Positions 24,546 through 26,424 of a stretch of DNA of 64,000 nt are shown piece by piece. Made by a program: the position numbers and the translations under genes. The notes below the pieces were generated by a model. The model had not been told where the DNA came from. It saw only the letters and a list, made by a program, of their open reading frames with translations, and did no database searches. Source of the stretch: a virus (lineage: Duplodnaviria; Caudoviricetes); IMG/VR virus record IMGVR_UViG_3300020420_000671. One strand, written 5' to 3'. Position 1 is the stretch's first letter. Every line of letters starts with the position of its first letter.

Positions 24546-25292
24546 ATGAAGGTTATAGACGTTTTAACAGAGTCAAAAAAGACAAATGAAGGTCCAATAC
24601 GCTTTTTAAAGCGTACACTAGGTAAAGATTCAGCTATGGGCAAGGATGCACAGCTGGATGTGGAATTGGACAGAGAAGTAAACAATCTTTACAAGGACTT
24701 TTATGCTGTATCTAAGCAAGATCCAAAACTCAAAGGCATGACAGCAAAAGGTTTAGGACAATTTATGGTATCAAAAGGTTTCGCTAACAAGCCTTCAGAA
24801 GTAATGCGTTTTATTAATCAAGATCCAAGCATGAGCAGAATATTAGCCAAGGGTGCTAGAAAATTTGCGAAAGGCGCAAAATCCGCGGCTGGCGCCGCTG
24901 GCAAAGCCGCTAAGATGGTCAGCAAGGGCATGGGCAAAGCCGCTGACGCCGCAAAGAAAGCATTTTCACCTAAGAAGTCGGATCTTACTCCAGATGGACA
25001 AATGGAACTTCCATTGTCAAATTCAATATACAGTGAAGCAGTACTGGAATCAATACTGAACGAAGTTGATATACCTTTGACAAAATCACAAGTCAAACAG
25101 GTAATGAAAGGCTTTGTAAGAAAAGGTTTTCAATCACAGCTAGGAAAACGCATGAAGAAAAGTGCTTACGCAACTGATCCTGGTGACGGTGATATGATGC
25201 CAGATGATGATATTCAGAACGCAGTAAACACTTTGAAAAATGCTGGCTTTAAGATAGATACAAAAACCAAAAAAATTAACACTCCAGCCTAG
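24546..25292 (+). CDS. Hypothetical late protein with Lys/Ala-rich segment
   Basis: RBS GGAG and a late box; KFAKGAKSAAGAAGKAAKMVSKGMGKAADAAKKA. Confidence 0.8.
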   Translation: MKVIDVLTESKKTNEGPIRFLKRTLGKDSAMGKDAQLDVELDREVNNLYKDFYAVSKQDPKLKGMTAKGLGQFMVSKGFANKPSEVMRFINQDPSMSRILAKGARKFAKGAKSAAGAAGKAAKMVSKGMGKAADAAKKAFSPKKSDLTPDGQMELPLSNSIYSEAVLESILNEVDIPLTKSQVKQVMKGFVRKGFQSQLGKRMKKSAYATDPGDGDMMPDDDIQNAVNTLKNAGFKIDTKTKKINTPA

Positions 25293-25525
25293 AAAAAAGG
25301 CTGTCCAGATTTTTTAGCAGTTTCTAAGTTTTCTTTCACAAGATCATTCAACAGTTCTATGTCTTCTTTACATAAATCGTAACTGTCATTTACAGTCAAG
25401 GATCCTCTCATCCACCAGCACAATCTGTACAGGGTTGCCTTAATCTGTTTGACCTCGCCTTCGAGGACCTTAACCTCGTTTTGGATTTTATCGAGTGACC
25501 ATGTTAAGATCCGGAGCCGAAAAAA
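25289..25525 (-). CDS. Start-less -1 frame extension of the upstream chaperone gene (gp51-like position)
   Basis: Open -1 frame FFRLRILTWSLDKIQNEVKVLEGEVKQIKATLYRLCWWMRGS..SGQPFF-TAG beginning at T TTT TTC (25525-25519); no start codon in its first ~30 codons. Confidence 0.7.
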   Translation of the reverse strand, partial: FFRLRILTWSLDKIQNEVKVLEGEVKQIKATLYRLCWWMRGSLTVNDSYDLCKEDIELLNDLVKENLETAKKSGQPFF

Positions 25526-26424
25526 TTGCTCTGATCAAAAGTAATTGGAACATCAAAGGTTTCTGGTGCGCCTGCTTTTCTTTCTTCTTCTGTAGACTCC
25601 ATAGTCACAGATTTGATTGCGTAATGTTCTTTCTGTGCTTTGATTACATCAGAAATCTGATTGAACACACTTGCTTCACAATTTTCCAAGAAGTCTTTCA
25701 AGTACGCCGGATTGGTTACAGCTTCTGCTTCACCATCAGGTTGTAAAGATAGAACGCTGTCTATCAGCACGTTGATATTGATTTCAGTAAGTTTTGTAAA
25801 TGCCTTTTGGAATCTAGCTAACTTTACTGTTTGATCAATGTCATCATTGTCTATAATGGAAAACACTCTCTGTTCTTCAAATGCTTTCACAGCCTGTTCG
25901 GTTTGAGTTTTGTAACTTATAGGTTTTATTTCTACAGTGAATCCATCTATCTTATGTATAGTTTCAAACTTCGCCGCTTGTAGATGGTCATAAACTGTTT
26001 GTAAGCTATAACCAAAGTCTCTAACAACTTTAGTGTTAGGAACAGTTGCTGAAATTTCAATAGTTTCACCATATGTTGCCATCCTAATGGCAATTAGTAT
26101 TACATCAAGATCGATTGAAGGACAGCTCCAAGCGTTTTTAATGTTTGGCATACAACTTTGTATCACATCAACTGTAGCTTGTCCATTCAATAACGCATCA
26201 GGGGTTTTGAATGTGATTTCATCCCTTGCGGTCATCGCATAAACAGGAAGTTCCCCAGACTCTGGAAAGTCTATAGCATTTGGATGCCAGTATTTTCCTT
26301 GGCTAGGCAGTTTAATGTAGATTTTTGGTTGTCTTAGGTGTTTCTTTAAAGGGTTAACCTGAGGTTGCCCCATAGGAACACCAGTACCGCCGGGCGCCAT
26401 TGGCGGGAAAGTATTATCTACCAT
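25504..26424 (-). CDS. Baseplate hub / tail assembly chaperone (T4 gp26-like)
   Basis: RQPKIYIKLPSQG, ELPVYAMTARDEI..DLDVILIAIRMATYGE resemble gp26; ends ..SNFFGSGS. Confidence 0.7.
   Translation of the reverse strand: MVDNTFPPMAPGGTGVPMGQPQVNPLKKHLRQPKIYIKLPSQGKYWHPNAIDFPESGELPVYAMTARDEITFKTPDALLNGQATVDVIQSCMPNIKNAWSCPSIDLDVILIAIRMATYGETIEISATVPNTKVVRDFGYSLQTVYDHLQAAKFETIHKIDGFTVEIKPISYKTQTEQAVKAFEEQRVFSIIDNDDIDQTVKLARFQKAFTKLTEININVLIDSVLSLQPDGEAEAVTNPAYLKDFLENCEASVFNQISDVIKAQKEHYAIKSVTMESTEEERKAGAPETFDVPITFDQSNFFGSGS

Follow-up and report, generated by a model that had tools for sequence, protein, structure and literature searches.

Introduction

Tail assembly chaperones of long-tailed phages are as a rule made in a short and a frameshift-extended form, and T4 is the standing exception to that rule. 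The slip site of the E/E' pair of phage P2 is T TTT TTG and, to our knowledge, the known families of tail assembly chaperones are mutually unrelated in sequence. The conservation of a -1 frameshift in these genes, including gpG/gpGT of lambda, has been reported by Xu, Hendrix and Duda (2004, Mol Cell 16:11, as cited in PMC9024508). T4 gp26 and gp51 are described as chaperones for assembly of the hub, and the particle contains no gp51 (PMC3004832, PMC9024508); the roles of the two essential genes have been vague since the 1970s, the products being termed 'hub assembly chaperone' or 'catalyst' (PMC3004832). Here we analyze a gp26-like gene on the minus strand of a 64,000-nucleotide stretch of DNA, hereafter the window, from a virus of the Caudoviricetes (IMG/VR record IMGVR_UViG_3300020420_000671). 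An earlier reading of the letters without database searches, hereafter the sequence-only reading, had proposed that this gene carries a programmed -1 frameshift, that it lies beside a tape-measure candidate and that gp26/gp51-like proteins here form a G/GT-type chaperone pair. The comparative analysis presented below makes it very probable that a single gene yields two proteins by programmed -1 frameshifting, a 34-kDa gp26-type and a 43-kDa gp51-type form, as a late-expressed member of the baseplate-hub assembly family.

One gene and two predicted products

The features on which this proposal is built are listed here by their positions in the window.

25504..26424, minus strand: 0-frame open reading frame (ORF) of 306 amino acids plus TAA, the gp26/gp51-family baseplate-hub assembly protein (short form), assigned through PF12322, phrog_150 and an AlphaFold2 (AF2) model
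25519..25525, minus strand: slippery heptamer T TTT TTC in the X XXY YYZ register, within codons AAT TTT TTC (N300 F301 F302)
25535..25537, minus strand: TGA closing the -1 frame, three sense codons before the first TTT
25289..25519, minus strand: putative -1 extension of 76 sense codons (CGG 25519..25517 to TTC 25294..25292) plus TAG 25291..25289, which fused to residues 1-302 would give a 378-amino-acid long form
24546..25292, plus strand: convergent gene of 248 amino acids, its TAG overlapping that of the extension (CTAG)

The gene, which is preceded by an AGGAG ribosome-binding site 8 nucleotides before its ATG, ends in AGC AAT TTT TTC GGC TCC GGA TCT TAA, with the 0-frame stop five codons past the in-register heptamer. 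Around the run the -1 frame reads TGA TCA GAG CAA TTT TTT CGG and, counting from the first TTT, its first TTG is codon 34 and its first ATG codon 38, with no ATG, GTG or TTG earlier. The extension fills exactly the gap between the gene and its convergent neighbour. The predicted products are a short form of 306 amino acids (34.1 kDa) and a long form of 378 amino acids (42.8 kDa), the latter with the junction ...SNFF-RLRILTWSLDK and a predicted tryptic peptide AGAPETFDVPITFDQSNFFR across FF-R. The heptamer, the TGA of the -1 frame, the stretch free of start codons, the 76 codons and the lengths of both products had all been given by the sequence-only reading, and each was found at the position it had assigned.

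In the mechanism that we propose, most ribosomes would read AAT TTT TTC and terminate five codons on, releasing the gp26-type short form, and some would slip back one base with tRNA-Phe in the P and A sites on U UUU UUC. The tRNA-Phe would re-pair as UUU UUU, perfectly in both sites, and a helix starting 6 nucleotides downstream would probably aid the slip. Slipped ribosomes would then read 76 more codons, producing the gp51-type long form with a helical-hairpin C-terminal domain. Comparison with relatives shows the slip signal and coding in the -1 frame from the heptamer on; it also shows that no start is conserved and that long forms fused in frame occur naturally beside short ones. From there we infer the slip itself and its rate; both forms would be needed in a set ratio and, as T4 genetics suggests, would act as non-virion chaperones that assemble the hub around the tape-measure protein.

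An aromatic FF pair lies near the C-terminus of both products (25519-25527 and 25292-25300, minus strand): the short form ends in NFF plus 1-4 residues, and the long form has PFF as its last residues, with P76 and F77 kept in at least 90% of sequences. The two FF pairs may represent a shared C-terminal docking motif.

Assignment to the gp26/gp51 family

The 306-amino-acid protein passes the PF12322 (T4_baseplate) profile with 34.6 bits against a cut-off of 24.5, residues 72-281 aligning to positions 35-206 of the 219 in the profile, and matches phrog_150 ('baseplate hub') at 8.6e-13. On the same Pfam profile T4 gp26 and gp51 score 215.6 and 177.5 bits, respectively, and both span its whole length. 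The AF2 model of the 306-residue body (predicted local distance difference test, pLDDT, 87.6) shows an alpha/beta fold with 59 matches in BFVD at E <= 0.001 (best E 1.9e-23; template-modelling score, TM, 0.78-0.83), named baseplate hub assembly protein or subunit and originating from many myoviruses. The window gene belongs to the T4 gp26/gp51 family (PF12322), and the gp26-like identity assigned to it from the letters alone is confirmed by the PF12322 and phrog_150 matches and by the BFVD models.

Its nearest cultured relatives are jumbo myoviruses at 23-32% identity, among them Phosso, Atu_ph07, PA5oct, 121Q/PBECO4, RaK2, GAP32/CBB, the Eneladusvirus group and XacN1, and thousands of closer homologues are found in marine metagenomes. 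Searches of PDB gave no Foldseek match to the body model at E <= 0.001 and no phmmer match to its sequence, and a VIA-align comparison with 48,161 chains returned matches to the central helical hairpin only, with Z <= 7.8, which is the noise range for helical models. The body had no Pfam or PHROG match to tail assembly chaperone families. The extension is modeled by AF2 as a helical hairpin (pLDDT 85.5), for which BFVD holds only unnamed phage ORFs of 72-73 amino acids at E 0.01-0.04.

Conservation of the slip signal

The 3' gene ends were read in 67 sequences, comprising the window, 53 distinct IMG/VR contigs (40-87% identical) and 13 cultured jumbo phages; identity to the window across the distinct homologues compared is 23-87%. 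An in-register run is present in 67/67, as TTTTTTC in 64 and TTTTTTT in 3, against a background of in-frame XXXYYYZ heptamers at 82 of the 18,875 other codon positions of these genes (0.4%). Conservation of the FF dipeptide forces part of the T-run, but not all of it. The codon before FF ends in T in every sequence, though it encodes nine different residues (N, D, T, S, H, R, Y, A and V), and in the rest of these genes T is the last base of the same codon families in only 37-70% of cases. There TTT accounts for 77% of the Phe codons, and the nine other FF pairs are mostly spelled TTC TTT. The T4-type gp26 genes, which are followed by gene 25 and have no -1 ORF, likewise keep the FF (EFFELL, EFFKVL) but spell it TTC TTT. 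Among relatives the 0-frame stop lies 1-11 codons past the heptamer, and the stop closing the -1 frame lies 0-29 codons upstream, mostly 0-3 and in several cases directly before the run. Conservation of TTTTTTC and of the -1 ORF in homologues, the check that the sequence-only reading had recommended, is thereby borne out, with all 67 sequences in register.

No account of frameshifting in gp26 or gp51 genes turned up in the full-text literature that was searched, and public records annotate at these loci nothing, a truncated ORF or a separate small gp51.

A homopolymer error or a recent frameshift mutation might instead have split one long gene, the long form then being made either always or never; homopolymer runs are error-prone, and some relatives do possess in-frame long forms. 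The frame arrangement nevertheless recurs across the 67 distinct sequences, among them the finished genomes of 13 cultured phages that come from many laboratories, and the DNA contigs of two further, independent studies agree, showing the same T6 run without an insertion or deletion. The recurrence of the T6 run in the contigs of both studies and in the 13 finished genomes rules out a sequencing artefact. The in-frame long forms, for their part, have a non-slippery xFR junction and always accompany a separate short gene, and we give artefact or decay practically no credence as an explanation. Contigs from two independent DNA runs were also seen to break and overlap at the heptamer region (25519-25537), which may reflect a stretch common to co-occurring strains and a branching assembly graph.

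A candidate stimulatory helix

Downstream of the heptamer a potential RNA helix can be drawn.

25465..25512, minus strand: candidate stimulatory helix of 10 base pairs with a 28-nucleotide loop, arms 25512..25503 (which includes the TAA) and 25474..25465

Its 5' arm begins 6 nucleotides past the heptamer. Within the subclade of the window (11 distinct sequences) 82.6% of helix cells are paired, against 25-50% in slid registers, and four pairs have changed on both sides, a count unmatched in 500 shuffles. Other subclades seem to use other pairing partners, and Rfam has no family near the slip site. We take the helix as a supporting hint for frameshifting.

The run and the helix also bear on transcriptional slippage, in which RNA polymerase would add one U in the T6 run and a minority of mRNAs would encode the fusion in frame. 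Such a one-base insertion would give an identical ...NFF-R... product, and RsoM2USA carries a run of nine T. Known bacterial transcriptional slippage sites are usually runs of eight or more, whereas the run here is only six T followed by C in 64 of the 67 sequences. A helix with compensatory changes 6 nucleotides downstream fits ribosomal frameshifting, and the heptamer is a perfect tandem-slip site for tRNA-Phe. Slippage by the polymerase thus appears unlikely to account for the locus.

Selection in the -1 frame

Across 55 sequences the extension can be aligned gap-free, and the alignment shows conservation of FFRxRLL, I14, WYMRG, ER, NLETTKK and a PFF at the C-terminus. The first new codon of the -1 frame is Arg in 55/55 (CGC in 20, CGT in 17, CGG in 15 and CGA in 3), the same bases being read in the 0 frame as G, A, V or D, and -1 codon 5 is AGG, CGG or AAG. 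Column entropy by -1 codon position over codons 3-12 is 1.08/0.68/1.43, equal to that of the whole extension. The invariant Arg and the entropy pattern imply that selection covers residues before any possible start, and we conclude from the alignment that protein-level selection acts on the -1 frame from the very first codon of the extension.

An alternative to a frameshift is two independent genes, in which case the -1 ORF would be translated alone, by coupled re-initiation or from a non-canonical start, into a free protein of 40-75 amino acids. Cyanophage and KVP40 records indeed annotate the -1 ORF separately as 'gp51', Phosso, Atu_ph07, 121Q, KVP40 and the cyanophages S-PM2 and P-SSM2 have an ATG that overlaps the upstream stop or comes shortly after it, many relatives have a TTG at -1 codon 7, inside the conserved RLL motif, and T4 gene 26 has an annotated internal second product, 26'. 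The ATG near the upstream stop in many relatives would allow coupled re-initiation. Against this, no possible start precedes codon 34 in the window, and the -1 frame of PA5oct lacks start codons altogether, while the first ATG of relatives falls anywhere from codon 3 to codon 38 and is not conserved. An exhaustive profile search with the extension recovered 459 cluster representatives at E <= 0.001, among which the small ORFs are called from profile positions 1, 4, 7, 8, 11, 21, 28, 35 or 39, a scatter to be expected if no real start exists. Protein-level selection, moreover, acts upstream of every possible start, from the codon after the heptamer, and independent initiation leaves unexplained the invariant wobble T before FF. 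That the extension serves a PF12322 body as its C-terminus is evident from the natural in-frame long forms described below. Two independent genes are for these reasons quite improbable.

The sequence-only reading had named an independent start in homologues as evidence that would tell against it. An ATG near the stop does occur in some homologues, so that in form such a start exists; its position is unconserved and it is absent from many relatives, the window and PA5oct among them, and the frameshift is not refuted by it. With the heptamer in 67/67, selection from the first new codon and no conserved start, the programmed -1 frameshift proposed at the outset is strongly supported.

Natural short and long forms in relatives

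The exhaustive profile search also identified 19 cluster representatives, of 319-351 amino acids, that carry the extension in frame at their C-terminus. A word-indexed search for longer proteins holding the extension had found none, a false negative in the light of these 19. In the in-frame long forms the junction is xFRxKLI, without a slippery run. In each of the three contigs examined, the gene immediately preceding the long one is a separate PF12322 gene of 294-319 amino acids that ends in xFF plus 2-4 residues.

L123, 4931-6914: tandem short and long PF12322 genes
L124, 411-2389: tandem short and long PF12322 genes
L125, 196-2114: tandem short and long PF12322 genes

The ends of the short genes in these contigs match the pattern of the 0-frame product of the window, and short and long paralogues are 23-27% identical. 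In L123 a 741-amino-acid gene diverges from the short/long pair, as in the window. Two of the tandem short genes have T TTT TTY, which may be a relic of a frameshift site.

Other T4-related phages fall into two arrangements. RB49 has two genes, as T4, and KVP40, S-PM2, P-SSM2 and HTVC008M have a single PF12322 gene ending in xxT TTT TTY 1-2 codons before the stop, followed by a -1 ORF. Profile comparison aligns the KVP40/cyanophage -1 ORFs with the tails of T4-type gp51 (probability 94.8%, P 5e-8). The jumbo extension in turn aligns with the KVP40/cyanophage ORFs in hhalign over its full length (58 columns, P 4.5e-4) with a 16-residue insertion; an hhalign comparison of the extension profile with the single T4 gp51 and gp26 sequences gave meaningless local matches only. 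The extension would be tied to the gp51 tail through the KVP40/cyanophage ORFs, the last link, between jumbo extension and ORFs, being of moderate strength; in a full-length profile alignment the extension is also co-linear with the gp51 tail.

T4-type gp26 ends in FF-[EK]-[LIV]-[LM] (gene 26 ends of the T4-type contigs L096-L108), which is nearer to the start of the extension, FF-R-x-R-L-L, than to the 0-frame tails, FF-G-S-G-S; T4-type gp26 looks as though it were a truncated long form. In the uncultured 595-kb phage LR756511.1 (L093, approximately 2240-2600 of the locus) the FFF of a distant PF12322 gene precedes another 25 codons of the 0 frame, and the ORF downstream has its own ATG and a gp51-like P-x-x-ER-x-x-I-x-K motif, with frame relations that differ from those of other relatives.

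Genomic neighbourhood and the tape-measure candidate

The gene is flanked on its 5' side by a large divergent gene.

26500..28779, plus strand: 759-amino-acid tape-measure candidate, divergent from 26424..25504, named from language-model neighbours and relatives

The 759-amino-acid protein belongs to no Pfam or PHROG family, and neither a phmmer search of PDB sequences nor a BLASTP comparison with T4 gp29 gave a match. Tape-measure families appear among its language-model neighbours at 0.93-0.94, a lead only; its RaK2 homologue is annotated as tape-measure-like, its CBB homologue (CBB_251) is an abundant virion protein with 29 virion peptides, and its homologues are marked as virion or structural proteins in the PA5oct and 121Q records. 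Its length is kept at about 740-800 amino acids among homologues. A tape-measure function is plausible on these similarities. Among 34 homologues the first ~460 residues are well conserved and the last ~300 highly variable, and a few distant relatives of 900-1000 amino acids carry peptidase M15 or VanY domains.

The divergent arrangement of gene and candidate recurs in Phosso, PA5oct, 121Q, RaK2, GAP32 and L123. The window does not show the order in which a tube and a tape-measure gene flank the gene on the same strand: here the gene diverges from the candidate and no tube gene precedes it. KVP40 and P-SSM2 have, on one strand, a tube-fold gene, gp26, the -1 ORF and a large gene without assigned function. 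CBB_250, the homologue of the window gene, is absent from the virion mass-spectrometry table in which its neighbour CBB_251 is present, and the PA5oct homologue has no note of detection by electrospray tandem mass spectrometry (ESI-MS/MS), unlike neighbouring genes.

The window as a whole corresponds to an uncultured marine giant phage of the T4 type. It codes for a gp55-like late sigma factor, gp46/47-like nuclease subunits, a gp20 portal (28788..30512), a gp21-like protease and a gp23-like capsid protein, and its baseplate-wedge genes are very large. Late expression of the gene is suggested by the following elements.

26465..26471, minus strand: T4-type late-promoter-like motif ATAAATA, 41 nucleotides upstream of the ATG of the gene
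19108..19968: gp55-like late sigma gene, in the same window as the ATAAATA motifs

The motif is depleted in the window (14 copies against ~30 expected). Most copies lie 20-45 nucleotides 5' of same-strand ORF starts, and the motif resembles the T4 late-promoter core. Besides the copy just listed, examples are these.

11528-11534, minus strand: ATAAATA
24519-24525, plus strand: ATAAATA
38414-38420, plus strand: ATAAATA
46236-46242, plus strand: ATAAATA
51842-51848, plus strand: ATAAATA
60108-60114, plus strand: ATAAATA
60957-60963, plus strand: ATAAATA

Elsewhere in the window, a gene with a SufE domain (PF02657, 1.1e-28; 22796-23200, plus strand) lies directly behind the gp46-like gene and is followed by a gene for a SegE-type GIY-YIG endonuclease (23412-23834, plus strand).

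Points against the proposal

Several observations weigh against the interpretation as one frameshifting gene of the gp26/gp51 type, beginning with the ATG codons near the 0-frame stop and the coupled re-initiation they would allow. Among the three relatives that have a short gene and a long one, two keep T TTT TTY in the short gene, which indicates that the heptamer can persist without an extension behind it. The RNA contigs cover 25576..25871 only, short of the slip site. The helix test draws on a small sample of 11 related sequences and on a helix derived from the window sequence itself. Folding of the 50 nucleotides downstream reveals more structure on average in relatives (-9.8 against -5.8 kcal/mol) but not in the window (z 0.45), which can be attributed to the exclusion of the 3' arm of the helix from this stretch; over 89 nucleotides the window is not unusually stable either (z -0.25). 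The link between jumbo extension and gp51 tail is only moderate when made through the KVP40/cyanophage ORFs (P 4.5e-4), and a direct comparison of the jumbo extension with gp51 tail profiles scores 15.8, a value reached by 7 of 400 column shuffles. The basis for a chaperone role, finally, is the T4 literature and the gene neighbourhood only.

Implications

What would be new here is the placing of the tail-assembly frameshift, itself a known device, in the T4 gp26/gp51 family, which has been regarded as lacking it. On a wider view, which we advance tentatively and rate a little below an even chance, the family would be the long-missing G/GT-type tape-measure chaperone of T4-type myoviruses, with one frameshifting gene as the ancestral and by far commonest state, with T4 genes 26/51 and the jumbo tandem pairs as independent replacements by duplication, and with the annotated 'small gp51' genes not free-standing. 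In that scheme the frameshift state is assigned to jumbo phages of the RaK2/PA5oct/Atu_ph07 type, KVP40, cyanophages and a pelagiphage, and the 'small gp51' genes of hundreds of phage genomes would be concerned.

If the proposal holds, gp26 and gp51 would represent one protein in two lengths, and a concrete and testable hypothesis would be available for their role. It would also correct how a core gene is annotated in cyanophages, in KVP40-like phages and in most jumbo myoviruses, where the -1 ORF is now called a separate 'gp51', cut at an arbitrary ATG or missed. The family would amount to a natural experiment, in which most lineages meet the need for two products by recoding and at least two lineages have duplicated the gene instead, and it would bear on why phages retain frameshifts of fixed ratio.

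Comparison with known systems

T4 gp26 (208 amino acids) and gp51 (249 amino acids) belong to the same PF12322 family as the window protein. They, too, consist of a short form ending just past FF (EFFELL in gp26) and a long form with a C-terminal tail (gp51), and share the location in the tail/hub neighbourhood, divergent from the structural operon. T4 differs, as the sequence-only reading had correctly stated, in having two separate genes, which are diverged and lie on opposite strands; its FF is spelled TTC TTT and forms no slip site, whereas the window would obtain both products from one gene by a -1 frameshift. The body of the window protein is in addition ~100 residues longer, lacks the C-terminal CxxC pairs of T4 and of cultured jumbo phages, and would carry an extension of 76 residues as against the 48-residue tail of gp51.

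The pairs of KVP40 and the cyanomyoviruses (KVP40.0328/0327, S-PM2p207/208 and PSSM2_014/015) have the heptamer at the same FF, a stop 1-2 codons later and a homologous -1 ORF, and the KVP40 record already notes the small ORF as similar to the C-terminus of T4 gp51. In these phages, however, the -1 ORF is annotated as 'gp51, baseplate hub assembly catalyst', with 55-57 amino acids, its own ATG and no frameshift, and the pair is flanked by a tube-fold gene on one side and a large unassigned gene on the other; the corresponding frame of the window has no nearby start codon. The order of tube-fold gene, gp26, -1 ORF and large gene in KVP40 and P-SSM2 is that of the classical tube, G, GT and tape-measure layout.

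With lambda G/GT the window gene would share a -1 slip at X XXY YYZ near the 3' end of a tail-assembly gene, from which one short product and one lengthened at its C-terminus would arise; the signal is kept across very diverged phages in which a tape measure fixes the tail length, and the gene adjoins a candidate tape-measure gene. It differs from lambda in that Pfam, PHROG and PDB fold searches show no likeness of sequence or fold to chaperone families, in a body of ~300 amino acids, two to three times larger than G-type chaperones, and in its position, divergent from the candidate and not between tube and tape-measure genes. The G/GT-type pair proposed by the sequence-only reading accordingly stands as regards the device, that is, a shared N-terminus and a -1 slip beside a plausible tape measure, and is not supported as regards family likeness and synteny in the window. 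The analogy with lambda G/GT is apt for the device, and a role of the window protein as a tape-measure chaperone is plausible.

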